The position numbers and the translations under genes were made by a program. A stretch of 64,000 nt of DNA from positions 1,856,001 through 1,920,000 of the forward strand of contig OY970061.1 of the NCBI GenBank assembly GCA_963705255.1, in the 5' to 3' direction. Under the pieces are notes generated by a model. The model did no database searches, was not told where the DNA came from, and saw nothing but the letters and a program-made list of their open reading frames with translations. This DNA is from an uncultured Methanoregulaceae archaeon. GTDB taxonomy: Archaea; Halobacteriota; Methanomicrobia; Methanomicrobiales; Methanospirillaceae. Of this stretch, positions 8,802 to 35,671 are shown in pieces. Each line of letters begins with the position of its first letter. Position 1 is the stretch's first letter.

Positions 8802-8821
8802 ATACCGGCGAATCTTTTTTC

Positions 8822-9430: not shown

Positions 9431-9511
9431 TCCATCCTTTTTTCCTGAACGCACACAGTATAATTTATATAGAAGTTCAATTCCACCTTTTACAACATCG
9501 GAGGATCCATT

Positions 9512-20014: not shown

Positions 20015-20049
20015 GAAAAGTCCTGCCCCGGATTCGGTGGTGACCAGAA

Positions 20050-20826
20050 TCACCTATAGGTTTTCTTATTCTCCTTAAGGGACATAACCGAGGCAATGAG
20101 GCGGTCGTGGTTGTCCCTGATCGGGCGGATGGTGAGGATCACCTTCCTGCGCTTCGAGGTCGTTGTCACAATGGAGATGCCGGCATCATAGATGGAGCCT
20201 GCCATATGCTTGGTGGCCGCGGTGACCGGGTCGCTGACCTCTTCCCCATTCGTCTCGCTTACGAACATCATGACATCCCGCCAGTGCCGCATAAATGCCT
20301 CTTTGAACGATTTGTCCACAAACCACGAGGCATAGGTATTGAACAATATGACCCGGCCTCGTTTGTCCAGAATAATGATCGCCTCACTCTCACTATCCAT
20401 CATCTTCCTGGGGTTGCCAACAGGCAGATTCCCCAGCATCCTGATCCGGTCAGCGTAAATCGACAGCGCGAGATCCACGCTTGCCGTGATCTCGATTGCA
20501 GCGAACGGTTTGAAGAGGATCCCGCAGGGCTGTGCGTACGTGATGCGTGCCACCTTCGTCTCATCGGAGGTCCCCGCGATGAAGACGACCGGGACATGGA
20601 AGAGCTGGAAGATATAATGGGCCGCATCAATCGCATCCATCAGCCCGGTGAGGTTCACATCCATGACGACGAGATCGGGGGCCGCATCAATTGTTTTTAC
20701 AAGTGCTTCTTCACTGTTCCTGATCGTCCCCGCGATACTGTATCCTTTATTCTGGAGCATCGAGGACATGAGGTTTACCATGATGACATCGTCGGCGGCA
20801 AACAGGATACGGGGGGCGCGGGGCAT
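20050..20826 (-). CDS. receiver (REC) + PAS domain protein
   Basis: PDLVVMDVNL and KPF receiver motifs; EAIIILDKRGRVILFN PAS start. Confidence 0.85.
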   Translation of the reverse strand: MPRAPRILFAADDVIMVNLMSSMLQNKGYSIAGTIRNSEEALVKTIDAAPDLVVMDVNLTGLMDAIDAAHYIFQLFHVPVVFIAGTSDETKVARITYAQPCGILFKPFAAIEITASVDLALSIYADRIRMLGNLPVGNPRKMMDSESEAIIILDKRGRVILFNTYASWFVDKSFKEAFMRHWRDVMMFVSETNGEEVSDPVTAATKHMAGSIYDAGISIVTTTSKRRKVILTIRPIRDNHDRLIASVMSLKENKKTYR

Positions 20827-21009
20827 GGGGCACCAGATGAGCGATCAGCCTATGCTGCTAGTATCAGTATCTGATGGTTAAAAAATTGATTCCGGGAAAC
20901 CCTGCTGCAAGGAAAAAAGTTCATGAAGGGGTGCACGCCTCAAACGGAGAAAAATATTCCGGCCTGTCGGGTTCTCTTCACCGGCGGCTTACGCTTCAAA
21001 GGACCCGGA

Positions 21010-22431
21010 TTAGGACTCGAACGTGACCAGCTTGGACTGGAACGTCCCGTCCACGAAATTGATCTGGCAGGTCTTCGCCTTCTCACCTTCGATCGGCAGC
21101 GGGTAACAACCGGTGAGACAGCCCGTGCAGAGATCCTCGCGGTCAAACCCGATCGCCTCGATCAGCGCCCCGATCGAGACATGGTGGAGCGTGGTCGCCG
21201 TGATGTTGTGCCGGACCTCCTCTTCGATGCGGTTGCTTGCGATCAGTTCCTCGCGGGTCGGCATGTCCACCCCGAGGTAACAGGGAGCCTTGATAGCCGG
21301 GGAACCGATCCGCATGTGCACTTCCCGGGCACCTGCGTCCCGCATCATCTCGATGATCCGCTTCGAGGTCGTCCCCCGTACTATACTGTCGTCCACCAGG
21401 ACCACCGATTTGTCCTTCAGGTGAGCGGGTATGGGGTTGAGCTTGATCCGGACCGCCTTCTCCCGCTCTTTCTGGGAAGGCATGATGAATGTCCGTCCCA
21501 TGTACCGGTTCTTCATCAGGGACTCGACGAACGGGATCTTCGACCCTTCCGCGTACCCGATCGCGTAGGTGGTCCCCGAGTCAGGGACCGAGCAGACCGA
21601 GTCCGCCTTGACCGGGGCTTCCTCGTGGAGTTTATGGCCGATCTGGCGCCGGACATCATAGACCAGCACGCCGTCGATTATCGCATCGGCCCGGGCAAAA
21701 TAGATGTACTCGAAGATGCAGTGTGCCCGTTTGCCGGCAACAGCAATCTGCGTGCACCGGATCCCATCTCCGTCGATCCGGATAAGTTCCCCGGGCCTGA
21801 CATCCCGGATGAACTTCGCACTCAGGGCGTCAACGGCCACGCTCTCGGACGCAATCATGTAGCCGTTCTCGGTCCTGCCGATGCAGAACGGCTTGATCCC
21901 CAGCGGGTCCCGGAAGCCGTAGAGGATCCCGTCGATCAGGATCACGACCGAGTAAGAACCCACGAGCCTGCGCATGCAGAGATTGACCGCATCTTCCACG
22001 GAGCCGGCGTTGCTGATCGAATCGATGAGGATCTTGGCGATAATCTCCGTATCAGTAGTGGTGGTAAAGATCTGGCCTGCCTGTTCGTATTCGGCCCGGA
22101 GCTCGCAGGTATTGACCAGGTTCCCGTTGTGGGCCACGGAAATGGAATGATCCTGGAACTGGAAGTTCAGGGGCTGGATATTCTCGGGAAGGTTTGCACC
22201 TGTGGTCGGGTAGCGGACATGCCCGACACCGGCCGTGCCCTTCAGATCGGATAAAACAGACGGGGAAAAAACATCGGCAACCAGTCCGTTCCCCTTGAAC
22301 TTATGGAGATTGGTGCCGTCAAACGTGGATATTCCGGCGCTCTCCTGACCACGGTGCTGGAGAGCATACAGGGCATAATAGAGCTGGATTGATACACCGC
22401 CAGCATCGACGATGCCAACGATTCCACACAT
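21010..22431 (-). CDS. purF: amidophosphoribosyltransferase
   Basis: MCGIVG, LQHRGQESAG, VDDSIVRGTT, CTGC. Confidence 0.97.
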   Translation of the reverse strand: MCGIVGIVDAGGVSIQLYYALYALQHRGQESAGISTFDGTNLHKFKGNGLVADVFSPSVLSDLKGTAGVGHVRYPTTGANLPENIQPLNFQFQDHSISVAHNGNLVNTCELRAEYEQAGQIFTTTTDTEIIAKILIDSISNAGSVEDAVNLCMRRLVGSYSVVILIDGILYGFRDPLGIKPFCIGRTENGYMIASESVAVDALSAKFIRDVRPGELIRIDGDGIRCTQIAVAGKRAHCIFEYIYFARADAIIDGVLVYDVRRQIGHKLHEEAPVKADSVCSVPDSGTTYAIGYAEGSKIPFVESLMKNRYMGRTFIMPSQKEREKAVRIKLNPIPAHLKDKSVVLVDDSIVRGTTSKRIIEMMRDAGAREVHMRIGSPAIKAPCYLGVDMPTREELIASNRIEEEVRHNITATTLHHVSIGALIEAIGFDREDLCTGCLTGCYPLPIEGEKAKTCQINFVDGTFQSKLVTFES

Positions 22432-22440
22432 GGTACAACT

Positions 22441-22623
22441 CTAATGCGTCGGGATTTTCGGTCGCTTGTTGTTCCACTTGTTGCTGATCATCTTGGTGCT
22501 TCTGCCAAAACCGCAGGCAGAGCAGACTTTCTTCTGGGCATGGAACGAGATCTTCCCACACCGCCGGCAGGCGATATGGGTGAACTTGTTCATCTTGCCC
22601 ATGGATGGAGTGCCTTTTGACAT
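22441..22623 (-). CDS. rpl37e: 50S ribosomal protein L37e
   Basis: [19 protein letters not shown]...CSACGFG. Confidence 0.97.
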
Positions 22624-22634
22624 GTTACTTCACC

Positions 22635-22865
22635 TTATTGTTCGAGTGATGGAGAGATATAAATCACGTTATCCCCACGGACGATGAGCGTGCCGACCTT
22701 CTGGGCCTGCCCGTTCTCCACTTCCTCGGCCTTGTCGAGGACGAGGTTCATATGTACATCATATCCCTGGAGAACGCCCCGGATCTCTCTCCCGCCTTTG
22801 AGAGATACAATAACGGGCTGACGGTTCAGCACCTGATCCAAAATATCCAACGGCCTCTTGGTCAT
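22635..22865 (-). CDS. Sm-like (Lsm) protein
   Basis: [21 protein letters not shown]; conserved Lsm-L37e pair. Confidence 0.95.
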
Positions 22866-23046
22866 AATACTACCCTGTTACCATCGCTCTGGAGTAATAT
22901 ATGTGTGCGAGCAGGTTACTTAAACATACCGTAGATCCCCCCAGAGCAATAAGGTTTCCTGCCGGTCAGAGGCTTAAAAAGAGGGGGAGTTTTCATAGCG
23001 ATGCAAATTTTTTTCATGCCTGCACTCTGATTGTTGAAGCAGAACG

Positions 23047-23544
23047 ATGAAAAAAATTGTTGTAAAGAAACGCCATTCCATCCGGAAAAGCCAGGGGCAG
23101 GAACTGCTGGCGCGGCTTGCAGAACAGATCGGGCCGTCGGCAAACCTCTTCCATGGGGACATGATCGAAGTGCTCGAAACGAACGCGGATGTCTCCCTCT
23201 TCATGGTCCACAAGAAGCCGCTCCTCATGGCCACGGATGCGTGGGTCTTCCCCACCCTCAAAGGTGCAGTCCAGCTCCCGTTCCCGGAACGGCGGGTTGT
23301 TGTCGACGCCGGGGCCATCCCCTACGTCGTCAACGGTGCGGATATCATGCGGCCCGGCATCGTCTCGGTCACGGATGACGTGAAGGCACAGGCACCGGTC
23401 CAGATCGTTGACGAGCGGCACGGCAAACCCCTTGCCATCGGAATCTCGCTCTTTGATGCGCCCGATCTGCGTGCCAGTACGGCCGGAAAGATGGTAAAAA
23501 AATTCCATCACGTCGGTGATGAGATCTGGAACATGGAGATCTGA
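23047..23544 (+). CDS. PUA-domain RNA-binding protein
   Basis: VDAGAIPYVVNGADIMRPGI, HHVGDEIW. Confidence 0.9.
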   Translation: MKKIVVKKRHSIRKSQGQELLARLAEQIGPSANLFHGDMIEVLETNADVSLFMVHKKPLLMATDAWVFPTLKGAVQLPFPERRVVVDAGAIPYVVNGADIMRPGIVSVTDDVKAQAPVQIVDERHGKPLAIGISLFDAPDLRASTAGKMVKKFHHVGDEIWNMEI

Positions 23545-23666
23545 CCAGCGTCCGGGACGTTGGGCATGCGGAAAACAGCCGGTTTTTCCCATTTTTTTTG
23601 CCTAAAACCCTGAGATGAGGCTTCAAAATAGATACTATTAAATAAGTTTCGTCATACAGTTTTTTT

Positions 23667-24035
23667 ATGGTTAAAATCATAGACACCCTTCTTGGTAAGA
23701 GTTCCGCAAGCTCGGACGACGATTACATGGAACTCGACCTCGCTTCTTATGAAGAGCACGGCGGAGCCGGCCCGGCACTGCTCGTAAAGATCGCGACCAT
23801 AACTGACCTCAAGGACACTCCCCGTGTCAAGGACGAGGTCTATTCCGGCAACATCGTGATCGTCGATATCTCCCGCCTGAAGATGGACAAGATCTCGTAC
23901 GAGCGCGTCCTGAAGGACCTAAAAGAAGTGGCAAAGGACGTCAACGGCGATATCATCGGCCTTGGGGACCAGCGCTATGTCGTCCTGACCCCTATGTCCG
24001 TGAAGATCTCGCGCGACAAGATCGGTGGAGCATAA
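23667..24035 (+). CDS. sepF: cell division protein SepF
   Basis: DYMELD, VYSGNIVIVD, GDIIG, VVLTP. Confidence 0.9.
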   Translation: MVKIIDTLLGKSSASSDDDYMELDLASYEEHGGAGPALLVKIATITDLKDTPRVKDEVYSGNIVIVDISRLKMDKISYERVLKDLKEVAKDVNGDIIGLGDQRYVVLTPMSVKISRDKIGGA

Positions 24036-24560
24036 GTGCAGAGCGTCGTCCCGGGTCCGTGTCCGTCCTGCAATACTGAAATCGAATACCTGTATAAGAC
24101 AGAAAATATCCCCTATTTTTCCGATATCCTCATTATTTCTGCGGTCTGCCCCTCCTGCGGGTACAGGTTCGTTGACACGCAGCTCTTAAAGCACGGAGAT
24201 CCTGCACGGTACACGATGCCGGTGGAATCAGAAGACGACCTTGCGGTCCGGGTCGTGCGGAGCATGAGCGCCAGCATCGAGATCCCCGAGATTGGAGTAC
24301 GCATCGATCCCGGCCCGGTCTGCCAGGGGTTCATCTCCAACGTTGAAGGCGTGCTCGACCGGATCGAGCAGGTGGTGAAGGGTGCACTCAACTGGGGCAC
24401 GGACGTAGAGAAGGAGAACGCGGCGGCACTCCTCACGGATATCGCCCGGGTGAAGAGCGGTGCTTACCCGGTTACGCTGATCCTTGAAGACCCGTGCGGG
24501 AACAGTGCGATTGTATCGGAGAAGGCGAAGAAGGAAGCGTACGTGCCGGAAGAAGAGTAA
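24036..24560 (+). CDS. ZPR1 zinc-finger protein
   Basis: CPSC, IPYF, CPSCGYR, RVVRS, SNVEG, EDPCGNSAI. Confidence 0.9.
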   Translation: MQSVVPGPCPSCNTEIEYLYKTENIPYFSDILIISAVCPSCGYRFVDTQLLKHGDPARYTMPVESEDDLAVRVVRSMSASIEIPEIGVRIDPGPVCQGFISNVEGVLDRIEQVVKGALNWGTDVEKENAAALLTDIARVKSGAYPVTLILEDPCGNSAIVSEKAKKEAYVPEEE

Positions 24561-24638
24561 ATTTTCTGATTTTTGATTCACCAGAAATCCGAGACCCCCC
24601 TCTTGTGCCTCCGAATGGTTCATCAGGACTATGAGGAT

Positions 24639-24780
24639 GAGAAGAACTCTTCAGAGTTCTTCGAAACCAGAACTTCCCCCATTGGGGGGGACGGGGCAAA
24701 TTGGGATAGCCCCATACAGGTAATACGGAGGCATCGCAACTCGGGGATGCCCACGCGGTGGGGGCGGAGCCCCCAAGAGC
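24639..24780. repeat. REP-like palindrome plus GC-rich mini-hairpins
   Basis: GAGAAGAACTC-TTCA-GAGTTCTTCGA (24639-24664) and GGGGGC-GGA-GCCCCC (24760-24774); related copies at 46.4-46.9 kb. Confidence 0.7.
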
Positions 24781-25065
24781 GTCAGACCTCTGATTAATTT
24801 TTCACCAAAGTTTGATCGATCCGGATTTTTTTCTCGGTCGCTGCAATCCGGAAAAAATCGATCGCGTCTCAGAAATTCTTAAAAATTTTATAAAGAATCT
24901 TTTCAGCCACCCCCAGCACATCCGGAAAACCAGATCCGCCCGTTTCATTGATCGAACCCAAGTCATCATAATATTATAAATGTCATTGAATCGTACCATA
25001 ACGATAAAAATCCGGCCCGATGGAAAAGATCACGCGGGCCACTCAACACACAGGAGAACCGAGCA

Positions 25066-25586
25066 ATGAATAACGACCCAAACCTAGGAGCGATCCTCCC
25101 GTGAATCGCGGCCGCCGGGCAACCAAGGGCCTCGATGACGCCGCCCCCATCGCCCAGCGACGCGGCTGCCTGATGAAGGTCGAGTACGGTCCGGAGAGCG
25201 TCTGCGATTTTTTGATCCGGACCGTCGAGCTCGTGATCTTCGTCCGGGTCGTGCGCATCGAGAAGATCGTTGCCTCGGTGAGCGAGATCGGGCACGAGTG
25301 CCGGGCTATCATCGCCGAGCTCCGGCTCTTCCCGCAGTCGCCGCAGATCCGGCTCGAGCTCTGGGCGTACAACAAACACGGGACGTACCGCTACTTCCGG
25401 CTCACCGCGACCGGCCTGGAGGAGATCCGGCAGAGCGGGGAGCCGGAGACCGTGGCCACGGGCGAAGGGGCGGACCAGCAGAAGGCCGGGGAAGCGGGAG
25501 GTACTTCGGGTGAGGGGCTGTCGCTGAAGTTCTCACGCTGGGGATGTTTCTCCGGTTTCGATGATGACGTATCGCATCCCGGATAG
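25066..25586 (+). CDS. hypothetical protein, possible degenerate restriction-endonuclease-like fold
   Basis: High-GC ORF 25101-25586. CAGGAG + ATG at 25066 joins it on adding one C at ~25098. CDFLI...FVRV...ELW..NKHGTYRYF pattern. Confidence 0.55.
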
Positions 25587-25723
25587 GGAAACCCGTCCAG
25601 ACGGTATTCTGCCTGGCAGAGGGGATTCAAAGTCAGTATTTACACCCTATTTGGAGGGGGTATCCCACCCTACCCTGTACAGGCGGTTCTCCGTCGTAGA
25701 AATCTGCCCCCGGAAAGGGCGAT

Positions 25724-25818
25724 GGGACTAAGTACCCCAAAACGGGGGACTAATTCGGGAAAATGGGGGACTAATTATTTCGAAGTCTTATGATTGGACC
25801 CGGATCGGTCGATCCGGG
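25724..25818. repeat. three GGGACTAA direct repeats (22/21-nt spacing) followed by a palindrome
   Basis: GGGACTAA at 25724, 25746 and 25767; CCCGGATCG-GT-CGATCCGGG at 25799-25818. Confidence 0.75.
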
Positions 25819-25974
25819 CCCGCAGCGGACCCTGATAAAAACCTTACTAGACGCAATACACTGGCAAAACTCAGGCTCAGACAGGCTGGGGTAGGCCCGG
25901 ATCGGAAAAAAGGGGGTCCGGATCGGGTCTCCGGACGGGGGGATCACCCCCCTTGCGCCAGCCGGCGCCTTGTC

Positions 25975-26200
25975 GGCGCCTTGTCGGCGCCTTCCTGACC
26001 TGGCTTGTTCCCTTCCTTGCCTCCATCCTGTTCTATGGCAGGGACGGTATGATGATCGATCTCCAGCTCTTCAAATCGCTGATGATCGGTGTCGGATCGA
26101 TCACTACCGCAATCCTGATCGTCTGGCTCCTTCCAGCCGGTTGAGAAAAATTTCACGCACGAGGCCATCGTGACCGGGATCGTCTGGGCTTCGATATCTC
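25975..26200 (+). pseudogene. fragment of a small membrane-protein gene
   Basis: FLTWLVPFLASILFY...IDLQLFKSLMI.VGS, then a frame change to EAIVTGIVW. No clean start; 11-nt tandem repeat GGCGCCTTGTC at the 5' edge. Confidence 0.5.
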
Positions 26201-26408
26201 GTGATCCCCGCGATGGTGAGCGCAACCTGGGTTGTGATGGAAGAGGTGGGAAAAAGAAAATATTGAAAATTTTTATAAGTAGTTTGTAATTAACGATTTT
26301 TTTAATTCTAGAAGAATTGGATATCGAACGCGATGACAGCGAAATTATTAACGTGTCTGAGATTTTTAAAACATATTATAATACTCGATCTGATAATGGT
26401 GAGCCTTC

Positions 26409-27257
26409 TTGAGTACTGTTGAATGTGGAGATGTAATCTGCAATTTCACAAATCCATTGAAAATTCATGAAGGAGGTCAACGAATTGTTTATCGAATCGA
26501 CCATCCGAAATATGGATTCGCCGTTTTAAAAGTTGGATATTATGCAACACCTTCGAGTCCGATGGGATGGGAATTAGAAAGGATTGAAAGGGAGGTAGAA
26601 ATTTTACGGGAAATTGATTCACCCTTTTATCCGAAAAATTATGATTTTCAAGTAATTTCAAAAAATCGATATATGATTCTTGAAGAATTTCTTGATTCGC
26701 CAACACTCACATATCAAATGGACAGATTCAATTCTCCAATCGCAGCTTTAAAACTTATAAAAGAGTTAGCAACCGGATTAAAAATTATTTGGGATAAAAA
26801 AATTGTTCACCGCGATCTCAAACCGGAAAATATTTTGATTAACGATAATAATTCCCCGAGAATTATTGATCTAGGGATAGCTCGAGTACTTGATTCAGAC
26901 TCAATCACTAAAACAAGATATGGTGGACCCTTATCCCGTGAATATGCACTCCAGAACAACATCGATATAATAAAGCGTTGATAAATTGGAGGACAGACCA
27001 GTATAATCTAGGAATCATTTTGATGCAATTACTATTGAAGGGTGTTCATCCCTTCTCTCCCTCATTAGTTGGTGGGAACTCCATTCGAGATAATATTTTG
27101 AATAATAACTGGTACCGAATTGCTCTAACTGACATAAGTCTTTTTACCCATACAACCATTCGCGACAAATTTGTTGGGTTATGAACAGTTTGAGCGCTAT
27201 AGAACATTTGAATTTTTCATGAACGATCTTGATTCATGTCTGAAGGTGATGAAATGA
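26409..27257 (+). CDS. Hanks-type Ser/Thr protein kinase (two frameshifts, ~26949 and ~27143)
   Basis: EGGQRIVY, AVLK, ERIEREVEIL, HRDLKPENI, IIDLG. Continues YAxPEQ...RTDQYNLG, then LLGYEQFERY...LKVMK* to TGA 27255-27257. GGTGA upstream of the TTG start. Confidence 0.85.
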
Positions 27258-28444
27258 CGTTTGAAATTTATCATCAACTGGGGCATAGAGACAAATGGAG
27301 TATTGATAGTTATCAGAACGATGGAACTGGAGAAGGAGTGATAATCTCCCCTCGTAGCAGAAAAAAAAGAAATGTGGAGTCTTTAAGCTCTACAGTGAAA
27401 AAGAAAGCAATTTTTGATCCTCAGTTTTTCAATCCGAATGCTGTAATAAAAAAGATGGATTCATATGATTTTTATCCCGATTTAATGATGCCAGGTGGAT
27501 TTGATACAATTCGTTTTTCAAATTATTGTTCGAATGTTGCTGAAAATTGTGTTTCTTTTCAAATTAAGAATAACTTCAGGTACATAGTGATTCCGACGAG
27601 GTTCTATGAGGGGGCACCGGATGCCGAATTTTTCACACGGAATCAAGAAAATGATTTTGTTATTCCTTTTTTAAATGCGAAAGACGCCATTAAGTCAAAA
27701 AAAGATGCGATTCTTCAGTTAGTTCTTACTGGACATATGTTGAGAAATAAAGTCTTTATCGATTATTTGCTTACATGGATAACGGGTCTCGAAGGGATCA
27801 AAGGGATTTATCTTATTACAGAACTATTACCAAGGAATTCTCAAATTACTGATGCCGAATTTTTATTGAATTTGATGAATTTCATCCACATACTCCATAA
27901 AAACAAAATGATTATTGTTTTGGGGTACCTGAATAGTGAATCGTTAATATTGTCGATTGCAAATCCATCGATCGTAACAATTGGTTCTTTCGGAAATTTA
28001 CGAATCTTTAATTCAAAGATGTTCGAAGAAACAGAGGCAGGAGAGATTAAAGTTCCGAGTTATAAGATCTATTCACCCGTACTTCTAGATTGGATTGATG
28101 CCCCATACGTAGATCTTATGAGAGACAGAGCCATAGTTCCTAACGAGTTCTTTGGGAATAATACATATCTGGAGACAATGTTCAGCGACGGGTACAATGG
28201 TAGTGCTCAAAGCAATGAACCATACAAACATTATTTCATTGAAATTTCGAAACAATTACAAGATATTCGATCATCAAATGGTGCGGATAGATATTCAAAA
28301 GTAAGTGAAATGTTACGAAATGCCAAAGATGAGTATTCCCGAATTAATGACACAGGAATTGATATCGGAAGACAAGGTGCCTTCGTTTCTCAATTTGCAA
28401 CAGCAGCAAATTTATTCGCACGTGATCAAGGTTGGAGAAAGTAA
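27254..28444 (+). CDS. hypothetical protein, predicted (beta/alpha)8 barrel
   Basis: Long AT-rich ORF; ATG 27254 overlaps the kinase stop (ATGA) after GGTGA; eight short hydrophobic strands alternate with helices. Confidence 0.8.
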   Translation: MTFEIYHQLGHRDKWSIDSYQNDGTGEGVIISPRSRKKRNVESLSSTVKKKAIFDPQFFNPNAVIKKMDSYDFYPDLMMPGGFDTIRFSNYCSNVAENCVSFQIKNNFRYIVIPTRFYEGAPDAEFFTRNQENDFVIPFLNAKDAIKSKKDAILQLVLTGHMLRNKVFIDYLLTWITGLEGIKGIYLITELLPRNSQITDAEFLLNLMNFIHILHKNKMIIVLGYLNSESLILSIANPSIVTIGSFGNLRIFNSKMFEETEAGEIKVPSYKIYSPVLLDWIDAPYVDLMRDRAIVPNEFFGNNTYLETMFSDGYNGSAQSNEPYKHYFIEISKQLQDIRSSNGADRYSKVSEMLRNAKDEYSRINDTGIDIGRQGAFVSQFATAANLFARDQGWRK

Positions 28445-28446
28445 GA

Positions 28447-28878
28447 ATGGTATTTAAGACTGAATCCGATTTGGTTGAGGCAATAAAAAGGAATCAACAG
28501 ATTCATGATTTTATGATTTCAGGGGATTTTTTGATGCAAGAAGAAGTATCAGGATTTTTTGGCGTTCCTGATGTCGTTTTTATTAAGCAAAATCACGAGA
28601 GAAAGATCTCATATGCATACGAGGCAAAACTATCCAATTGGCCTAGGGCATTGACACAAGCATTCCGATACAAAGCATTCGTTAATAAATCGTTTGTAAT
28701 TCTGGATCACGACCATATTGAACCAGCGTTGTCAAACGCCGATAAATTTTGTAAGGCGAATGTTGGGTTGATGAGCATAGATTGTTCGGGAATCCTTCAT
28801 TGTCATTATAACCCCTATTATGAGACGCCATATTCTCAACGGTTGGAATATAAGTTCAATGAAAAATATCGATTGTAA
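28447..28878 (+). CDS. small PD-(D/E)XK nuclease-fold protein
   Basis: TESDL...QEE...VPDVV...YEAKL..W..ALTQAFRY; starts 2 nt after the upstream stop. Confidence 0.75.
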   Translation: MVFKTESDLVEAIKRNQQIHDFMISGDFLMQEEVSGFFGVPDVVFIKQNHERKISYAYEAKLSNWPRALTQAFRYKAFVNKSFVILDHDHIEPALSNADKFCKANVGLMSIDCSGILHCHYNPYYETPYSQRLEYKFNEKYRL

Positions 28879-28935
28879 TTTTTGTAGTTATTGTCTTTTT
28901 CGATTTGATGAAAATTAGAAAGAGATTAAAGCCCT

Positions 28936-29927
28936 TCACGTTATCTCCATCTCCCCGAGCCACGCCCCTGCTTCCCGTATGACTTTCCCGACGACCTGTG
29001 CCCCCTTCACCATCTTCCGGATGCAGGCAACGCTCTCTTTGGGGACGACATATGCGTATCCCATGCCCATATTAAAGGTGCGGTACATCTCGACCAGCGA
29101 AATATCGCCGGCCTTCTGGATCCACGAGAAGATTTCCGGAGGGGTTATGGGCGTGTCGAACCGGAAGCCGTAATCGCTCAGCCGCCTGAAGTTGAGCAGC
29201 CCTCCTCCGGTGACATGACACATTCCGTGGACCGCACAGGCTGCCGTTACCTTCAGGGTCTCGTGGTAAATCCGGGTCGGGACGAGCAGTTCCTGCCCGA
29301 GTGTCCGCCCGTCCCCCAGCTGCTCAGCGTATCCCGCGTACTTCTCCACGACATTCCGGGCAAGGGAGAGCCCGTTGCTGTGGACACCCGTTGACCGGAT
29401 CCCGACAATGGTATCGCCGGGCCGGATCTTTCACCGGTTATGATCCGGTCCTTCTTCTGCATGCCAAGACAGGTACCGGCAAGGTCGAGGCCGTTGACCA
29501 GTCCGCGCAGCGACGCGGTCTCCCCGCCCACGATGTCGATGTTCGCCTGCCGTGCGCCCTCGTTCAGGCCGATTCCGATCTGGGACATCTTCTCTATCGA
29601 GAGCTTATCGGTAGCAATGTAATCGACGAACGCGACTGGTTCCACGTTCATGACATAGAGGTCGTTCACGTTCATCGCGATGCAGTCGATACCAACCGTA
29701 CTCCAGTCTTCCATCCGGTCCGCAACGAGCATCTTCGTCCCCACCCCGTCGGTGGTCAGGGCAAGCGCCATCTCGCCGAAATCGATCAGCCCGGCAAAAT
29801 GGCCGACCGATCCCATCATCGTGGTGCTGCCTTTCCGCCTGAACTTCAGGTTCCCGATGAGGGCTTTGATTGCCGTTGCTTCGAGATCGATGTCCACGCC
29901 GGCTTCCGCATACGCGTTCTTACTCAT
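28936..29927 (-). CDS. purM: phosphoribosylaminoimidazole (AIR) synthetase (frameshift ~29430)
   Basis: YAEAGVDI, TDGVGTK, AMNVND, GGETA, HVTGGG, TFNMGMG. Halves join on adding one A. Confidence 0.95.
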
Positions 29928-31320
29928 CGCTCTCCTCCGAGAGCCGGAACTCATCATGGAGAACACGGACCGCACGCGGACCGTCGTTCTGGCTCACCAC
30001 GAACGAGATGTTTGCTTCCGAGGAGCCCTGCGAGATCATCATCACGTTGATGCTGGCTGCCCCCATTGCGGTAAAGATCCTCCCGCCGGTCCCCGGCGCC
30101 CCTGCCATTCCTGCCCCGACGACCGCAACCGCGCAGACATCGTGGTTATGGGAGACTTCGCGTACAATGCCCTGTTTCATGAGATCCGACAGGGCCTTTA
30201 CCGCGGCGGACACATGAGACTCGTCCACGATCAGCGATATATTTGCCTCGCTTGAACCCTGCGAGATCATCATCACGTTCACGTCGTGATCGGCAAGGAT
30301 GGTAAAGATCGCCTTTGCCACACCGGGCCTCCCGATCATCTGTGCGCCGTTGATATTGATGGCCGCGACCTTGTCGATATACGTGAGGGCTTTTACCACG
30401 CGGTTGTCCCGCTGCCCGTTCCGGACGATGACCGTACCGGGATGGGAAGGGTTGAAGGTGTTCTTCACCCGGACGAGGATGTTCTTGCGCATGGCGGGCT
30501 CGATGGAGCGGGGGTGCATTACCTTTGCCCCGAAATAGGAGAGTTCCATGACCTCGAGGTAGGAGAGCGAGGGCATCACCCGGGCATCATTGATGACCCG
30601 GGGGTCGCAGGTCATGATCCCGTCGACATCGGTCCAGATCCAGATCTCGTCCGCATCGATCCCGGCACCGATGATGGAGGCGGAGTAGTCCGAGCCGCTC
30701 CGCCCGAGGGTGGTAAGGACCCCCTCCCGCGTGCAGCCCATGAACCCCATGATGACCGGTATCTCTTTTGCGAGCAACGGGCCGACCCGCCGTTTGATCC
30801 GTTCATCGCTCTCGGGAAGGGATGTCGACTCACCGTGCTGGGGGGTGGTGAGGATACCGGCCTCGCAACCGTCCATAACTGTGGATGCAATGCCCCGCCG
30901 GCGGATGGCCGCAGATAGGATCGGGGCAAGCAGCCTTTCACCAAACGAGATGATATAATCCTTCGAGCGGGGAGTGAGTTCCCGCAGGTTATAGACCGCG
31001 AAGAGGATGTTCTGGAGGCTGATGAGCTGCTCTTCGATCTCGGCACCGACCTGTGCAACGGAGTCCGGCGCAGCCCCTTCAAGGGTGGTCATGTGCCGCC
31101 GGGAAAGGGCCTGGATCAGGGGGGCGATGCCGGAGTCGTCCTTTGCTGTCGGAAGCTTGCCGGCGATCTCGATGAGCTGGTCGGTGACACCCCGCTGTGC
31201 CGAGACGACAACGGCAAGTTCGTCGCCTTTCCCGTGGTGCTCTTCGAGGATGTCGACAACGCGTTTGATACACTGGGCATCGGCAACGGATGTCCCGCCG
31301 AATTTCATCAGAAATCTCAT
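29920..31320 (-). CDS. lysC: aspartate kinase with two ACT domains
   Basis: MKFGGTSV, VVVSA, TTLGRSGSDYSA, WTDVDG, MISQGSSE twice. Confidence 0.95.
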   Translation of the reverse strand: MRFLMKFGGTSVADAQCIKRVVDILEEHHGKGDELAVVVSAQRGVTDQLIEIAGKLPTAKDDSGIAPLIQALSRRHMTTLEGAAPDSVAQVGAEIEEQLISLQNILFAVYNLRELTPRSKDYIISFGERLLAPILSAAIRRRGIASTVMDGCEAGILTTPQHGESTSLPESDERIKRRVGPLLAKEIPVIMGFMGCTREGVLTTLGRSGSDYSASIIGAGIDADEIWIWTDVDGIMTCDPRVINDARVMPSLSYLEVMELSYFGAKVMHPRSIEPAMRKNILVRVKNTFNPSHPGTVIVRNGQRDNRVVKALTYIDKVAAININGAQMIGRPGVAKAIFTILADHDVNVMMISQGSSEANISLIVDESHVSAAVKALSDLMKQGIVREVSHNHDVCAVAVVGAGMAGAPGTGGRIFTAMGAASINVMMISQGSSEANISFVVSQNDGPRAVRVLHDEFRLSEESDE

Positions 31321-31382
31321 TTGTTCTCTCACTCTGGACGTGCCATTTATTTATGTAACTATACGATCCACAAAATAATAAG

Positions 31383-33011
31383 ATGCTTGCAGATGAGATT
31401 GTGGACTGCCACGTGCTGGTGATCGGGAGCGGAGGTGCAGGTGTCCGCGCTGCCATTGAGGCATCGCAGTATGGCGATACGGTCCTCATCTCAAAGACCA
31501 TCGTGGGAAAAGGGGGTTGCACCCCGATGGCGGAAGGGGGGTACAATGCAGTCCTGAGGGAAGAGGACTCGTGCGGGATCCATTACGAGGATACGATGAA
31601 GGGGGGAGCGTACCTCAACGATCCCGAACTTGTGAATATTCTTGTGAAGGAGGCCCCACTGCGGATAGGGGATCTCGTGAAATGGGGTGCGGTCTTCGAT
31701 TTCACTGACTCCGACGAGGTCGCCCAGCGCCCGTTCGGGGGCCAGCGGTTCCCGAGGACGTGTTATGCCGGTGACCGCACCGGCCACGAGATGATGACGA
31801 CCCTTGTCGAGCGACTCGATGCAACGGAGGTCTCCAATCTGCAGGAGTATACGATCACCGATCTGCTGAAAGACGGAGAGGCGGTTATCGGGGCGATGGC
31901 ACTTGACGAGAAAGGCGGCCTCGTCCTCCTCAAAGCAGACAGCACGGTCCTCGCGACGGGCGGCGGGACGAAGGTCTACGACATCTCCACAAACTCCTCG
32001 GGTGGGACCGGTGACGGGTTTGCCATGGGGTACCGTGCAGGTGCCGAACTGATCGATATGGAGATGGTCCAGTTCCACCCGACCGGGGCAGTCTCCCCCT
32101 ACGATGCCCGGGGGAGACTCGTGACCGAAGCGGTCCGTGGCGAGGGGGGTATCCTGCTGAACGCGAAAGGGGAACGGTTCATGAAAAACTATGATCCCGG
32201 GCGGATGGAGCTCTCCACCCGGGACCTCGTCGCCCGGGCGATCGCGACCGAGATTGTGCAGGGAAGGGGAACGGAGCACGGCGGGGTCTATCTCGACGTG
32301 ACCCACCTCCCGCGGGAGCAGGTCGAGACCCGCCTGCCGGTCATGCTCGAACAGTTCCTGAAGTTCGGTGTGGATATCCGGAACGAGCCGATGGAGGTGG
32401 CACCCACGGCCCACCACATCATGGGAGGACTCCGGATCACACCTGAAGGGCGGACTACCCTGCCCGGGCTGTTTGCCTGCGGAGAGGTCGCAGGAGGCGT
32501 GCACGGTGCCAACAGGCTTGGCGGGAACTCACTGGCCGACACGCAGGTTTTCGGGAAACGTGCCGGTGAGGCAGCGGGAAGATCTGAAAAACGAGAGAAA
32601 ACGGTTGACCTGCGCCAGGTCGAGACCCAGGAGGTGCGGCTCGCGGGCTTCCTCTCCGGGAACACCAACCCGGCTCTCGTCCGCAGGGAACTCCAGCTGG
32701 CGATGTGGCAGGGGGCTGGCATCTTCAGGAATGCGGGGGATCTCGACAAGACGCTCCGGACGATACGGCAGCTCTCGGCAGTCAATCTCCGGGCAGCTTC
32801 CTTAAGGAACCTTGCCGAGTGCTGTATCGTCCAGAACATGTGCCTTACCTCATCGCTCATCTGCAGGAGCGCTCTTCAGCGCAAAGAATCCCGGGGGGCG
32901 CACGTCCGGACCGATATTCCCCAGTCGTATGGTGCTGAACACTCCCCGTTCGGCCACACCTTTATCTCGCAGTCCCGCGAGGGAATCGAAAACCGGGAGG
33001 GAATCGCATGA
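31383..33011 (+). CDS. tfrA: thiol:fumarate reductase flavoprotein subunit A
   Basis: IGSGGAG, QFHPT, TEAVRGEGG, HGANRLGGNSL, ESRGAH; no covalent-FAD His (CTPMAEGG). Confidence 0.9.
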   Translation: MLADEIVDCHVLVIGSGGAGVRAAIEASQYGDTVLISKTIVGKGGCTPMAEGGYNAVLREEDSCGIHYEDTMKGGAYLNDPELVNILVKEAPLRIGDLVKWGAVFDFTDSDEVAQRPFGGQRFPRTCYAGDRTGHEMMTTLVERLDATEVSNLQEYTITDLLKDGEAVIGAMALDEKGGLVLLKADSTVLATGGGTKVYDISTNSSGGTGDGFAMGYRAGAELIDMEMVQFHPTGAVSPYDARGRLVTEAVRGEGGILLNAKGERFMKNYDPGRMELSTRDLVARAIATEIVQGRGTEHGGVYLDVTHLPREQVETRLPVMLEQFLKFGVDIRNEPMEVAPTAHHIMGGLRITPEGRTTLPGLFACGEVAGGVHGANRLGGNSLADTQVFGKRAGEAAGRSEKREKTVDLRQVETQEVRLAGFLSGNTNPALVRRELQLAMWQGAGIFRNAGDLDKTLRTIRQLSAVNLRAASLRNLAECCIVQNMCLTSSLICRSALQRKESRGAHVRTDIPQSYGAEHSPFGHTFISQSREGIENREGIA

Positions 33012-34474
33012 AGGAACTGACCGTCAGGGTATTCCGGTTCGACCCGGAACAAGAGCGTGAGGGGCATCTCGAGACCTACACAGTCACGGTCAATGAGGGT
33101 GCCCGCGTTCTTCATGTGCTTCATGCCATCCATGACGGGATTGACCCGACACTCTCGTACCGCTATTCCTGCGCCTCCGGCCAGTGCGGGAGCTGTGCCG
33201 TGCGGGTGAATGGTGAACCGGTGCTCGCCTGCATGGAAGAGGCTCACGACGGGATCATGATCGAACCCCTGAACCTCGCGGTGAAAAAGGACCTCATGAC
33301 CGATCTGGTGCCAAGACTCGAGGAAATTGCGTACCTGCTGCCGAAGAAGGAGACCGTGCTTCCAAAAAAAGCAGACATCGATGCCATGAAACCCTTCAGG
33401 GACTGCATCGAATGCCTCTGCTGTGTCTCGGTCTGCCCTGCTGTCGACGTGACAAAGTTCCTCGGGCCGACGGCGATGCGTCAGGAGATGCGGCTCGCGC
33501 TCGATCCCCGCGACAGCGGGGACAGGATTTCAGATGCAGTCCGTGAGGGCCTTTTTACCTGCACCAGCTGCCAGGCCTGCTGGAAGGTCTGCCCGAAGGA
33601 GATAGAGATCCCGGGAAAGGCGATCGAGAAACTCCGGGCGCACGCAAACAAGAGGGGGTTCACCCTGCCCCGTCACCGGGAAGTGGCAGCACTCATCAAG
33701 GAGACCGGACGGAGTGTGCCCCGCACCACGGAATCGTTCCTTGAAAGAGTGGGTGAAGTTATCGAACCATACGGCCCGGTGAAGGCGACCGTCGGGTTCT
33801 TCATTGGTTGCATGTACAACCTCCGGCAGCAGCAATCGGCACTCGACGCGATCGAGGTGCTCCGGCGTAACGGGATCCGGGTCATTGTTCCCCGGGAACA
33901 GGTCTGCTGCGGTTCGCCCCTGATCCGAACCGGGCAGCTTGATTATGTTGATACCCTGAAAAAGCGGAATATCGAGATCTTCACGTCCCGGAAGATCGAC
34001 ATCGTCCTGACGATGTGCGCCGGCTGCGGTTCCACCCTGAAGAACGATTATACAACGCCATTTAAGGTCATGGACATCAACGAGATCCTCACGAAGTACG
34101 GCATTGAACCCCCGGCACGTCTCCCGATCAAGGCAACGTACCACGATCCCTGCCACCTCATGCGCGGGCAGGGCATCCATGACCAGCCCCGCGAGCTGAT
34201 CCGGCAGGTCGTGGACCTCGTCGAGATGCCCCCGATCTGCTGCGGTTCCGGCGGGGGCGTCCGGTCCGGCAACCCCGAGGAGGCGGCAACCTTGGGCAGC
34301 AGGCGGGGAGAGGAGATAAAAAAGACGGGTGCGGAGATCGTGATCACCTCTTGCCCGTTCTGCGAGTTCCACATTGCCGGGCATACCGATAAGCCGGTCA
34401 GGAATATTGCAAGTGTCCTTCTGGAAGGATACCGGGCGAAAGACCGGAAAAAAGGGATGCGGGCCGGGCACTGA
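33008..34474 (+). CDS. tfrB: thiol:fumarate reductase subunit B (Fe-S + CCG domains)
   Basis: CASGQCGSC, two 4Fe-4S motifs, two CCG domains, YHDPCHL. Confidence 0.9.
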   Translation: MKELTVRVFRFDPEQEREGHLETYTVTVNEGARVLHVLHAIHDGIDPTLSYRYSCASGQCGSCAVRVNGEPVLACMEEAHDGIMIEPLNLAVKKDLMTDLVPRLEEIAYLLPKKETVLPKKADIDAMKPFRDCIECLCCVSVCPAVDVTKFLGPTAMRQEMRLALDPRDSGDRISDAVREGLFTCTSCQACWKVCPKEIEIPGKAIEKLRAHANKRGFTLPRHREVAALIKETGRSVPRTTESFLERVGEVIEPYGPVKATVGFFIGCMYNLRQQQSALDAIEVLRRNGIRVIVPREQVCCGSPLIRTGQLDYVDTLKKRNIEIFTSRKIDIVLTMCAGCGSTLKNDYTTPFKVMDINEILTKYGIEPPARLPIKATYHDPCHLMRGQGIHDQPRELIRQVVDLVEMPPICCGSGGGVRSGNPEEAATLGSRRGEEIKKTGAEIVITSCPFCEFHIAGHTDKPVRNIASVLLEGYRAKDRKKGMRAGH

Positions 34475-34513
34475 TCTCATGAGGGGGGCCGGTCATGGTG
34501 CTTGAGCGGTTCC

Positions 34514-35671
34514 TTAGTCTTTGAACGTTCTCATCAGATACTCGTACGTTTCCAGAGCTGCCTTTGCCCCGTCACCAGAAGCAATGACGATCTGCTTGCT
34601 CTTGACGTTTGTCACGTCTCCTGCTGCAAAAATGCCGGGCATGCTGGTCCGGCCGTTCAGGTCAACGACAATCTCCTGCTTCTCGTTCAGTTCGACGAGT
34701 CCTGCCACCATATCCGTATTGGGCAGCCAGCCGATTTCGATAAATAGACCGTCGAGACCGATCTTCTGTTCTGCCCCTTTCTCGTCCCTGATGGTGACAG
34801 CGTCAAGGAATTTGTCGCCATGAAGTGCGGTTATCGTGGTGTTGGTATGGACGGTAATGTTCTTCTTGGTCTTCAGTTTCTCGATGTAGACCTGATCTGC
34901 CCGGACAGAGCTGCGGACAATCAGGATTACGGACCGGGCAATCTCACCCATTTCGAGCGCGGTCTGCAGTGCGGAGTTTCCCCCGCCCACAACTGCAACC
35001 CGTTTTTCCCTGAAAAGGGGGCCGTCGCAGGTAGAACAGACCGACAGCCCGCGGCCGAGAAACTTCCCCTCGTCTGCAACACCCAGGTTCCGGGGGCGGT
35101 TGCCCTGCGTGAGGATCAGGCTTTTGGCCCGCACGGTATTATCCGAGATGGTTCTGATAATGAAGATATCGTCCTCTTTTGAGATAGAGGTGACCTTATC
35201 GAGTTCAAGCCGTATGTTGAGCGTCCGGGCCTGCTCCTCGAATTTTTTCATCAGGTCTTCCCCGGTGATCATGCGATAGCCCATGTAATTCTCGATCGCC
35301 CACGACTCCAGTGCCTGCCCCCCGATATTTTCACTGATAATCAGCGTGTACAGCATTTTCCGGGCACAGTAGACACCGGCCGTAAGCCCCGCCGGGCCTG
35401 CACCGACGATCAGGACATCATACGTATCTGTCACTGGCGGCTCGCCGAAGAGTTCGTTCAGCCTCTGGGTATCGAAGCCGACGATTACTTCATCGCCAAC
35501 GGTAATGACCGGAACTCCGCGCTGACCGGAGAGCTCGATCATCTTTGCTGCAGCTTTTTCATCGGCACCGACATCGACGTTTTCGTAAGGCACACCGTAT
35601 TTTTCGAGAAATGACTTGGCCATCCGGCAGTACGGACAGTTTTTTGTCGAATAGACGGTTACTCTGGTCAT
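34514..35671 (-). CDS. glutaredoxin(NrdH)-thioredoxin reductase fusion
   Basis: N-terminal CPYC...GQRGVPV; GAGPAG, CSTCD, GGGNSA, FAAGD. Confidence 0.9.
   Translation of the reverse strand: MTRVTVYSTKNCPYCRMAKSFLEKYGVPYENVDVGADEKAAAKMIELSGQRGVPVITVGDEVIVGFDTQRLNELFGEPPVTDTYDVLIVGAGPAGLTAGVYCARKMLYTLIISENIGGQALESWAIENYMGYRMITGEDLMKKFEEQARTLNIRLELDKVTSISKEDDIFIIRTISDNTVRAKSLILTQGNRPRNLGVADEGKFLGRGLSVCSTCDGPLFREKRVAVVGGGNSALQTALEMGEIARSVILIVRSSVRADQVYIEKLKTKKNITVHTNTTITALHGDKFLDAVTIRDEKGAEQKIGLDGLFIEIGWLPNTDMVAGLVELNEKQEIVVDLNGRTSMPGIFAAGDVTNVKSKQIVIASGDGAKAALETYEYLMRTFKD

Follow-up and report, generated by a model that had tools for sequence, protein, structure and literature searches.

A low-GC island in an archaeal genome carries a kinase, TGT-fold barrel and nuclease triad that is a candidate defence module

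PD-T4-6 and Stk2 have been described as stand-alone, single-gene kinase defences, and the TerY-P triad (TerY, PP2C phosphatase and kinase) is a three-gene kinase-containing candidate defence module. To our knowledge, only a small number of the defence systems in archaea have been tested. PglW of type 2 BREX/Pgl combines NERD nuclease and kinase modules according to the relevant passages of PMC12839542, in which Dpd is described without a kinase partner. Cap10 of type IV CBASS is presented, in the part of the preprint that concerns it (bioRxiv 10.1101/2025.04.06.647259), as a TGT-family enzyme with a non-tRNA substrate and without a Zn site; this example, as given there, shows the reuse of the TGT fold in immunity. 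Genes 2 and 3 of the locus reported here match no model of PADLOC-DB v2, and a full-text literature search found no published description of the triad system, in agreement with the original prediction, in which the combination was not recognized as a named system.

Analysis of the window (the whole 64-kb stretch of DNA that was analyzed) revealed an island with the following features.

26245..28935, no strand assigned: low-GC inserted island (34.9% G+C), delimited by composition and homology edges
26245..26408, + strand: AT-rich leader, putative archaeal promoter and ribosome-binding region, inferred from reading the sequence
26409..27257, + strand: gene 1, Hanks-type Ser/Thr protein kinase, about 282 aa if intact (Pfam Pkinase, PADLOC, family alignment)
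27254..28444, + strand: gene 2, 396 aa, unannotated family, predicted TGT/DpdA-like TIM-barrel fold
28447..28878, + strand: gene 3, 143-aa PD-(D/E)XK nuclease (fold and motif)
28879..28935, + strand: T-rich spacer after gene 3, read from the sequence

The island contains 940 G or C residues in 2691 nt (0.349), compared with 0.557 in the flank at 20000-26244 and 0.596 at 28936-35000. It is the sole run below 0.42 G+C within the window (500-nt windows), and a base count at 27481-27540 gave 19/60. SepF and ZPR1 lie on its 5' side, and purM (AIRS/AIRS_C) and an aspartate kinase gene lie on its 3' side; a GC-rich variable segment downstream of ZPR1 adjoins it on the left and the purM stop codon on the right. 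Homology to the relative G019 stops at 26244, and homology in purM restarts at 28935. The ZPR1-purM site is empty in the relatives G010 and G020, where the two genes are about 70 nt apart, and searching 40 close relatives revealed no gene 2. The abrupt low-GC switch within a GC-rich core and the horizontal acquisition claimed in the original prediction are thus both supported. No tRNA, integrase or Rfam family marking the island was found (Rfam E up to 0.1). A "direct repeat" at 26239-26269 and 28901-28931 was rejected as an att site because its copies are only about half identical and AT-rich.

The three genes are tightly coupled, as had been claimed: the kinase TGA (27255-27257) overlaps the gene 2 ATG (from 27254) in an ATGA at 27254-27257, translation of the kinase is coupled to that of the TGT-fold gene, and the gene 2 TAA (28442-28444) is separated from the gene 3 ATG (28447) by 2 nt. 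The GGTGA motifs that had been reported are present at 26398-26402, before gene 1, and at 27245-27249; gene 3 is instead preceded by GGAGA. The leader, which gave neither a tRNA nor an Rfam match at E up to 0.1, has TATA-like runs (TTTTTATAAG near 26266 and ATATTATAATA near 26376) that would fit its putative promoter role. The spacer, which carries TTTTTG... and CTTTTTCG... and adjoins the convergent purM stop, is plausibly an archaeal oligo-T terminator.

The 190-aa first frame piece of gene 1 matched Pkinase (PF00069) with 70.3 bits (cut-off, 31.7), and intact triad kinase homologues scored 71 to 114 bits. Alignment of the triad kinases (n = 24) revealed K41, E62, H134-R135-D136, N141, D154-L155-G156, A180-P182(-E183), and D197 as invariant or nearly so, which we take to be the ATP-binding Lys, alpha-C Glu, HRD Asp with its Asn, DFG-type Asp, APE, and helix-F Asp of the textbook motifs; HRD-x-K-P-x-N, DLG, APE, and R263 are also retained in the family alignment. 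The Hanks identity proposed from the sequence therefore stands, and the triad kinase is a soluble Hanks kinase without a sensor. The PD-T4-6 models of PADLOC matched the kinase with E values of 4.5e-23 (window piece), 1.3e-32 (locus L002), and 2.6e-39 (L095), and the mad6 HMM of PADLOC matched it as well, in both cases with scores no higher than generic Pkinase similarity. The NCBIfam PglW and MAD6 scores were far under their cut-offs.

In the window, gene 1 is not one open frame. It is divided into pieces at 26409-26947, 26948-27146, and 27147-27257, and the shifted frame contains stops. Relative to the intact homologue of L002 (78% identical), one nucleotide is missing near 26947 and one extra nucleotide is present near 27146. 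Gene 1 is either a pseudogene or affected by two assembly indels, and the module in this genome may be partly decayed or misassembled; with two indels in the kinase gene, the local copy may have no working kinase. That the locus is a decaying remnant, with the kinase inactivated by two real indels and the other genes carried as nonfunctional passengers, is a serious possibility, though we lean slightly against it. It would account for two indels inside 850 nt, and along about 20 kb of synteny with about 13 conserved genes, purM is the only frameshifted gene. Kinase frameshifts recur in 2 of 48 other loci (L025 and L038), while no split was seen in the barrel (0 of 50 loci) or the nuclease (0 of 52 loci); this recurrence hints at which component is costly for the host. 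On the other side, the host genome is one contig (89.5% completeness) in which the essential purM is also frameshifted, and assembly indels therefore do occur. The barrel and nuclease frames are intact in the window and are 82% and 76% identical, respectively, to those of L002. No RNA run was listed for the locus. Four DNA runs, all from one study, gave short-read contigs of low depth (2 to 4) that match the window at 26250-26624, 26954-27125, and 28034-28930 and span neither kinase indel site.

Searching for homologues of the middle gene yielded a co-occurrence set of 61 loci, which formed 41 clusters at 90% identity. A flank of 300 nt or more was available upstream of the barrel in 51 loci and downstream of it in 53; all 51 have the kinase as the adjacent upstream gene, and all 53 have the nuclease as the adjacent downstream gene. 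The full triad is present in all 44 loci having both flanks, across archaea and bacteria. The arrangement is not due to chance, because the same three families adjoin in every testable public locus. ORF clustering across the loci revealed these three families only and no fourth conserved one. The nuclease gene is on the opposite strand, in convergent orientation, in 8 loci, and the order nuclease-kinase-barrel was found on a plasmid of Natribaculum breve as well as in 3 genomes of the window's phylum, with a barrel identity of just 16 to 18%. The linkage of the triad thus survives rearrangement, and its members are always encoded together.

Gene 3 has the restriction-endonuclease-like alpha-beta-beta-beta-alpha-beta core and the motif G39-x-P41-D42, E59-x-K61, Q71, so that the nuclease of about 143 aa that had been recognized is confirmed in both fold and active-site residues. 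In 59 nuclease sequences, P41, E59, K61, W65, and Q71 are invariant, and D42 is at least 90% conserved. Longer relatives carry a winged-helix-like N-terminal extension.

The nuclease profile matched 11 of 401 genomes of the phylum. Low-GC islands hold the module in the window and at L002-L004, L095, and L101. Carriers include Methanoregula, Methanofollis, Methanolacinia, Acidobacteriaceae, Desulfobacterota, Bacillota, Betaproteobacteria, Bacteroides, TA06, and Anaerolineales. Since cultured carriers can be named (Dechloromonas hortensis MA-1, Methanofollis fontis, Methanolacinia petrolearia, Bacteroides timonensis, and Natribaculum breve), the defence hypothesis is directly testable. Relatives of gene 2 were found neither in viral contigs by pattern scan nor in 50,697 phage records by tblastn; a plasmid search gave one match. 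DDE transposases adjoin L003, L004, L014, L025, and L027, a terminase GpA is encoded at L006, and MobA/MobL, DUF3987, and ParE/Phd are encoded at L010 and L012. Proximity to defence genes, raised in the original prediction, was seen in part: PADLOC neighbours (E up to 1e-8) occur at 9 of 30 loci scanned, a count made without a matched background control, and many triad loci lie amid housekeeping genes. The neighbour types are MTase_II, PDC-S03, SNase C3a212, PD-T7-1 with SspB and SspC, dGTPase, REase_II, SduA, a second kinase, and PD-Lambda-3_A. An IetA-like AAA-TPR gene at L002 and a "DpdH" match at L010, which is the MobA/MobL relaxase gene, were not counted because the matches look generic.

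On balance, and with modest confidence, we read the triad as a self-contained, horizontally mobile three-gene module that is most likely an undescribed anti-virus/anti-plasmid defence system. The evidence for a defence function is contextual: mobility, the defence neighbours at 9 of 30 loci, and the types of the components. A different role, as an addiction or stress module of mobile elements akin to toxin-antitoxin pairs, in which the kinase or the nuclease is a toxin checked by the other components and no antiviral function is served, appears unlikely. The triad's small, tightly coupled genes on transposon-, relaxase-, plasmid-, and prophage-associated DNA would suit such a module, frameshifts confined to the kinase (window, L025, and L038) are expected if the kinase is costly, and kinase toxins exist in the HipA families, which provide a precedent to the extent covered in the relevant part of PMC8262856. 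However, three conserved enzymes, including a 400-aa barrel, exceed the needs of a typical pair, and the convergent nuclease in 8 loci fits stoichiometric co-expression poorly. Many such modules are themselves defence systems, so that this alternative overlaps the defence reading.

The AF2 model of gene 2 showed a TIM barrel with a pLDDT of 92.4, which bears out the barrel that had been predicted and narrows it to a TGT/DpdA fold: the predicted structure has a TGT-type (beta/alpha)8 barrel with a C-terminal subdomain, and the best structural matches found by VIA-align were tRNA-modifying TGTs. The gene 2 product is thus specifically modelled as a TGT/DpdA-fold protein with a remodelled pocket, a relation drawn from the predicted fold alone. 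The TGT relation surfaced with VIA-align only. Foldseek against the PDB returned only generic TIM barrels (pyruvate carboxylase and HpaI aldolase; E of about 1e-4, TM 0.3 to 0.4), and against the BFVD viral models, it returned nothing at E up to 0.001. Gene 2 had no Pfam match at E up to 1, a PDB profile search gave nothing related, hhalign against an ArcTGT alignment gave a probability of 0.3, and the ESM Atlas returned unnamed hypothetical clusters only. Longer or fused forms (714 to 2035 aa) were not found by profile search, which is weak evidence. A PF01702 search of the host genome missed gene 2 and matched two other genes, a canonical ArcTGT gene and a second TGT paralogue. Gene 2 founds a family lacking a Pfam, PADLOC, NCBIfam, or PHROG model, so that current annotation pipelines would overlook the system and report a "PD-T4-6-like" kinase only.

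The invariant residues of the gene 2 family are Q8, D55, Y71, Q103, Y186, R250, and H326. A Zn-binding Cys/His cluster (CxCxxC...H) is absent from the family: C99 is the sole invariant Cys in 36 sequences, and none is invariant once a distant clade is added, whereas the host ArcTGT alignment retains C276, C278, and C281. When strands were matched by order, without superposition, the invariant D55 (FDPQ) fell at the TDSG Asp and the invariant G244 at the FDS Asp. By this strand order, gene 2 would have lost the nucleophile Asp of transglycosylases and kept the base-contacting Asp.

These features bear on Dpd-like restriction-modification, in which the barrel would swap a base of host DNA (compare preQ0 insertion by DpdA), the nuclease would cut incoming DNA that is unmodified, and the kinase would provide DpdB-like ATP-dependent control or act as a Pgl-like effector. 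We consider this improbable, slightly more so than an addiction module: gene 2 lacks the Zn-binding Cys cluster (a single Cys is invariant among 36 sequences, and the wider set has none), an invariant Gly appears to occupy the position of the TGT nucleophile Asp, the sequence of gene 2 is similar to neither TGT nor DpdA, and DpdB, DpdC, QueC, and other deazaguanine genes are not conserved nearby. An accessory RNA/DNA modification or repair operon with a physiological role (e.g., phosphorylation-regulated tRNA base exchange), spread by chance hitchhiking, is very unlikely, because despite tRNA-modifying TGTs as top structural matches, NucS and XisH-like nucleases among the gene 3 matches, and several loci amid housekeeping genes, gene 2 is missing in 40 of 40 close relatives, the host already owns two TGT genes, the spread over two domains is patchy and in low-GC islands, and the family does not conserve the catalytic and Zn features of TGTs.

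For the defence reading, the TGT-fold protein would recognize, or noncanonically process, a nucleobase in nucleic acid. Classical base exchange is less likely than such a reader or noncanonical role because the zinc subdomain and the nucleophile Asp are apparently lost and the base-contacting Asp is kept. The barrel is probably complexed with the nuclease, which probably acts on DNA, given the winged-helix-like domain in its long forms. The kinase may switch the barrel-nuclease pair on or off by phosphorylation or serve as a second, host-directed effector. In modelling of the complex, which had been suggested together with the original prediction, the L002 kinase from another genome, the window barrel, and the window nuclease (as the partner) were used as chains. 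As the partner, the nuclease gave a score of 0.53, compared with 0.00 for the best control and 0.00 with the barrel replaced; agreement between runs is 86% or more of contacts, with a partner pLDDT of 88 or higher. Of 157 solved complexes, 116 attain the mark used for this score, as do 2 of 215 mismatched pairs, and scores above the mark that do not exceed 0.60 include only 18 of the 157 solved complexes and both passing mismatches. The model gives weak support to a complex of the nuclease with the other triad chains.

A more specific version of the defence reading is that an unannotated TGT branch, without its former transglycosylase chemistry and turned nucleobase reader, forms a complex with a winged-helix/PD-(D/E)XK nuclease and licenses cleavage of hypermodified (e.g., 7-deazaguanine-type) or otherwise foreign DNA, with the obligate kinase setting the threshold or killing the cell, in a module found in methanogens and haloarchaea as well as in six or more bacterial phyla; in this detailed form, we regard it as speculative and rather unlikely. 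If the triad is a defence system, it is a compact three-gene module working in both archaea and bacteria. It would then also represent a third independent case, after DpdA and Cap10, of the TGT fold being recruited into immunity, here with a pocket that is remodelled and a eukaryote-like kinase partner.

Two candidate models were set aside on the portions of the sources that treat them: CapK/CapS, since CapK has a STAS partner and belongs to the anti-sigma-type kinases, not to the Hanks kinases (PMC13373217), and the BREX-related "BRC" (TGT and GNAT), whose HerA, PglZ, and STAND partners are missing from the triad (PMC12839542). Among the described systems, TerY-P differs in its vWA/TerY and PP2C components, which Pfam found in no triad locus scanned. 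QTRT2, the noncatalytic paralogue of eukaryotic TGT, works on tRNA together with a catalytic TGT, whereas the triad has no second TGT-fold gene. PglW and the mad6 component of MADS resemble the triad, as far as the published passages concerned extend, in uniting a kinase and a restriction-endonuclease-fold nuclease within one defence system; however, they are large multidomain proteins of six- to eight-gene systems with a methyltransferase, PglZ, and BrxC, none of which is conserved at triad loci by ORF clustering. With respect to Dpd, gene 2 has neither sequence similarity to DpdA nor a Zn site, and DpdB (a ParB-like ATPase), DpdC, and the DpdD-K restriction genes did not recur among the triad neighbours in Pfam and PADLOC searches. 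CD-NTase, QueC-like Cap9, and Cap10 were not found in 150 plus 111 neighbour ORFs (Pfam) or in 143 (PADLOC); the likeness to Cap10, as portrayed in that part of the preprint, lies in a remodelled TGT fold lacking the Zn site, as in gene 2. PD-T4-6 (PADLOC PDLC04039-04064), which is the best defence-library match of the triad kinase, and the related Stk2 share with it the sensorless, soluble Hanks architecture, but the triad kinase is always accompanied by the TGT-fold and nuclease genes (51/51 and 44/44 testable loci).

Composition analysis of the window revealed a G+C content of 0.32-0.37 from ~26200 to 28900, compared with 0.54-0.66 outside. With its edges placed by homology at 26245 and 28935, the resulting island contains 940 G+C in 2,691 nt (0.349) and is the sole stretch below 0.42 G+C across the 64-kb window. 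The abrupt switch to low G+C described in the original prediction has sharp bounds, the left and right flanks having 0.557 and 0.596 G+C, and a recount of 27481-27540 gave exactly the 19/60 G+C reported there. The location between ZPR1 and purM was also verified, with SepF and ZPR1 upstream and, on the opposite strand, purM and aspartate kinase downstream. The island is filled by three genes:

26409 (TTG) to 27255-27257 (TGA), + strand: gene 1, kinase
27254 (ATG) to 28442-28444 (TAA), + strand: gene 2, barrel
28447 (ATG) to 28876-28878 (TAA), + strand: gene 3, nuclease

All signals on which tight coupling had been proposed are present: genes 1 and 2 overlap at ATGA, 2 nt separate genes 2 and 3, and GGTGA motifs occur at 26398 and 27245. 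Automatic ORF listing puts the gene 2 start at 27236; the true start is 27254 because M-x-F-E-I-Y-H-Q opens every homologue.

Comparison with related genomes revealed different contents of the ZPR1-purM gap. In two relatives (G010 and G020), ZPR1 and purM are ~70 nt apart; in a third (G019), the gap holds a GC-rich segment common to window 25050-26244 and then 670 nt of unrelated sequence; and in Methanoregula sp. PtaB.Bin085 (locus L002), the same site carries an AAA-TPR gene and the triad. Because the contents differ among these genomes and the window, the gap is a variable hotspot with cargo differing by species, and the triad is one such cargo. A search for an integrase, a tRNA, or a convincing terminal repeat marking the island found none.

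In L002, the closest relative, the additional hotspot gene (2423-3970, - strand) encodes a TPR-AAA ATPase with a match to IetA models (E 3e-32) and no counterpart in the window; it may be a defence gene or simply a generic AAA protein. The region separating ZPR1 from the island, window 24600-26244, is a GC-rich variable segment missing from G010 and G020 and partly common only to G019 and a further relative, G062 (~75-77% DNA identity). Its ORFs matched no Pfam family, and short direct repeats are located at 25739-25776 and 25797-25926. Just downstream of ZPR1, 24610-24790 contains two short segments (~55 and ~70-100 nt) whose dispersed copies (76-95% identity) are numerous in most genomes of the genus; matches also occur at several places in the host genome. 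They look like a MITE-like interspersed repeat family.

Searching a collection of 5.8 billion clusters revealed 66 gene 2 homologues, all annotated as hypothetical. Pattern scans of species genomes yielded 13 loci and those of metagenomes 48; at 90% and 70% identity, these group into 41 and 27 clusters, respectively. By tblastn, a kinase lies directly upstream of gene 2 in 51/51 loci whose upstream sequence extends at least 300 nt, and a nuclease directly downstream in 53/53 that extend at least 300 nt downstream. The full triad is conserved in all 44 loci with both flanks, the other 17 ending less than 300 nt from gene 2 on one side. An ATGA-type overlap of kinase stop and gene 2 start was present in 19 of the 24 kinase ORFs examined. 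When flanking ORFs were clustered, no other family exceeded 7 loci, and these represent one near-identical betaproteobacterial element.

The linkage of kinase, barrel, and nuclease outlasts rearrangement. A long nuclease is convergent on the other strand in 8 loci (Dechloromonas, Ferribacterium, and relatives). The order long nuclease-kinase-barrel occurs in three genomes of the host phylum and on plasmid CP095393.1 of Natribaculum breve, with a barrel only 16-18% identical to that of the window; two such modules, L095 and L101, again lie on a low-GC island. Vertical conservation, named in the original prediction as a refuting outcome, was not observed: gene 2 was present in 0/40 relatives (24 of the same genus and 16 of the same order), and the nuclease profile matched 11/401 genomes of the phylum. 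Neighbours of triad loci include DDE transposases (L003, L004, L014, L025, and L027), a terminase large subunit (L006), and a MobA/MobL relaxase with DUF3987 and ParE/Phd (L010 and L012); no relatives of gene 2 were found in phage collections. The triad is shown to be obligate as well as mobile.

The first piece of gene 1 matched the Pkinase profile with 70.3 bits (cut-off, 31.7). Alignment of 24 triad kinases revealed conservation of all the predicted Hanks motifs (K41, E62, HRD-x-K-P-x-N, DLG, APE, D197, and R263), which identifies gene 1 by sequence as a Hanks-type kinase with an active-type catalytic core. In agreement with the claimed lack of transmembrane and sensor domains, the triad kinases (275 to 320 aa) are practically a kinase domain alone. 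The best PADLOC library matches were the PD-T4-6 and mad6 models; their scores equal that of the generic kinase profile and therefore reflect kinase homology, not system membership.

Three-frame translation revealed that the window kinase switches from frame 0 to frame 2 and back to frame 0. DNA alignment with the intact single-frame L002 kinase (282 aa, 78% protein identity) located two 1-nt indels: a deletion near 26947, within the Y-A-A-P-E codons, and an insertion near 27146, where there is a T5/C3 run. The two indels are not a functional compensation because frame 0 contains stops between both sites. Short-read contigs (four DNA runs, one study) had zero differences from the window where they overlap it; they end at 26624, 26954-27125, and 28034 onward, bridging neither site. 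Assembly error and real decay are about equally probable. The genome, assembled as one contig, has a marker completeness of only 89.5%, and the core gene purM is also frameshifted near 29425, as an assembly error might produce. Real decay is favoured by purM being the only frameshift in ~13 conserved genes over ~20 kb syntenic with two relatives, by two kinase indels in 850 nt versus none in genes 2 and 3 over 1.6 kb, and by a kinase split across frames in 2/48 other loci (gene 2, 0/50; gene 3, 0/52). The window triad may lack a working kinase.

The purM frame change, placed by comparison with the intact purM of two relatives, leaves two overlapping ORFs (28936-29975, - strand): AIRS (29253-29975) and AIRS_C (28936-29349). 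The other frameshifted triad kinases (L025, 1798-2642, and L038, 264-1092) belong to unrelated metagenome loci and may represent recurrent kinase loss.

Gene 2 had no match in Pfam, PADLOC, NCBIfam, PHROGs, or PDB sequences and only unnamed clusters in the ESM Atlas. An AlphaFold2 model from 36 homologues (pLDDT 92.4, pTM 0.92) displayed the predicted TIM barrel. Foldseek returned generic TIM barrels only; direct structural comparison scored tRNA-guanine transglycosylases (TGTs) highest.

Structural comparison of the gene 2 model (scores)
Archaeosine TGT (1iq8): 19.6; 298; 3.5
Bacterial TGT (3unt): 18.9
QTRT2 (6fv5): 16.7
DpdA (7ui4): 15.2
Best unrelated barrel: 13.2

Cap10 of type IV CBASS reached only 12.7-13.1. 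The model thus gives a good assignment of gene 2 to the TGT fold; membership of the TGT family failed at the sequence level. PF01702 matched two genuine TGT genes of the host genome and not gene 2, profile-profile comparison with ten archaeosine TGTs gave a probability of 0.3, and the TGT Zn cluster is absent, with one invariant Cys in 36 sequences and zero once a distant clade is added. Residues invariant across all clades are Q8, G10, G28, P33, D55, P56, Y71, Q103, P114, F139, T177, G184, Y186, G244, R250, and H326. When pocket residues of the model were matched to archaeosine TGT by strand order, not superposition, D55 (F-D-P-Q) would occupy the place of the base-contacting Asp in T-D-S-G, and G244 would replace the nucleophile Asp after strand 8 (F-D-S).

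The gene 3 model (pLDDT 92.2) and 59 aligned sequences, in which G39-x-P41-D42, E59-x-K61, W65, and Q71 show full or almost full conservation, bear out the assignment as a PD-(D/E)XK nuclease with an intact motif. With 744 representatives at E up to 1e-3, its family is larger than the gene 2 family. Forms of ~220 aa, found in the two rearranged architectures, carry an N-terminal extension with weak winged-helix matches (MarR, TrmB, and HTH_24) in 5/17, only one above the curated cut-off; these matches point to DNA as the probable substrate.

Long nuclease forms (~220 aa)
L010, 7168-7833, - strand
L095, 6687-7364, - strand
L101, 4420-5085

In a three-chain complex prediction with the L002 kinase, the nuclease scored 0.53 versus 0.00 for the best control and 0.00 with the barrel swapped out; contact agreement between runs was at least 86% and partner pLDDT at least 88. 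The mark set for this score was reached by 116/157 solved complexes and 2/215 mismatched pairs, with values up to 0.60 comprising 18 of the 157 and both passing mismatches. This suggests, weakly, that the nuclease binds the barrel. The barrel would recognize, or non-canonically process, a nucleobase in nucleic acid, the nuclease would cleave DNA, and the kinase, translationally coupled to the barrel, could regulate both or act as a host-directed effector. Breaks confined to the kinase would fit a costly kinase, but they are few. Cap10 is described in a preprint (bioRxiv 10.1101/2025.04.06.647259) as a TGT-family enzyme without a Zn site, re-aimed at a non-tRNA substrate in an immune system; it offers a precedent for gene 2, not evidence.

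PADLOC analysis of 143 neighbour ORFs at 30 loci detected defence genes in 9 as a raw count; two further generic-looking matches were left uncounted.

Defence neighbours of triad loci
L003: Type II methyltransferase
L005: PDC-S03 (two copies)
L006: SNase candidate
L007: PD-T7-1 with SspB and SspC
L008: dGTPase
L029: restriction-enzyme-like ATPase
L030: Shedu SduA
L039: second kinase
L048: PD-Lambda-3_A

Many triad loci sit amid ordinary genes, and the raw count of defence neighbours is suggestive only. The L007 neighbourhood (2632-4080 and 8229-12636; Desulfobacteraceae MAG) is a clear defence island, in which a PD-T7-1 homologue (E 1e-192) and SspB/SspC, parts of the Ssp phosphorothioation defence system, flank the triad. 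Altogether, the observations of the original prediction hold and its interpretation is partly supported; a defence function is more likely than not.

The triad is set apart from TerY-P as that system is usually defined. The defining partners of PD-T4-6, Stk2, Pgl/BREX type 2, MADS, Dpd, and type IV CBASS were sought at triad loci and not found, which distinguishes the triad from each of them. The partners described for a TGT-containing BREX-related system (PMC12839542) were likewise not found at these loci. As first proposed, the combination matches no named system: the literature searched, mostly outside subscription journals and supplementary tables, contained no kinase/TGT-like/nuclease module, and a large candidate catalogue may list the triad unnamed. 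In comparison with known systems, the triad is a multi-gene defence-type cassette of newly combined parts, one of them from a new protein family.
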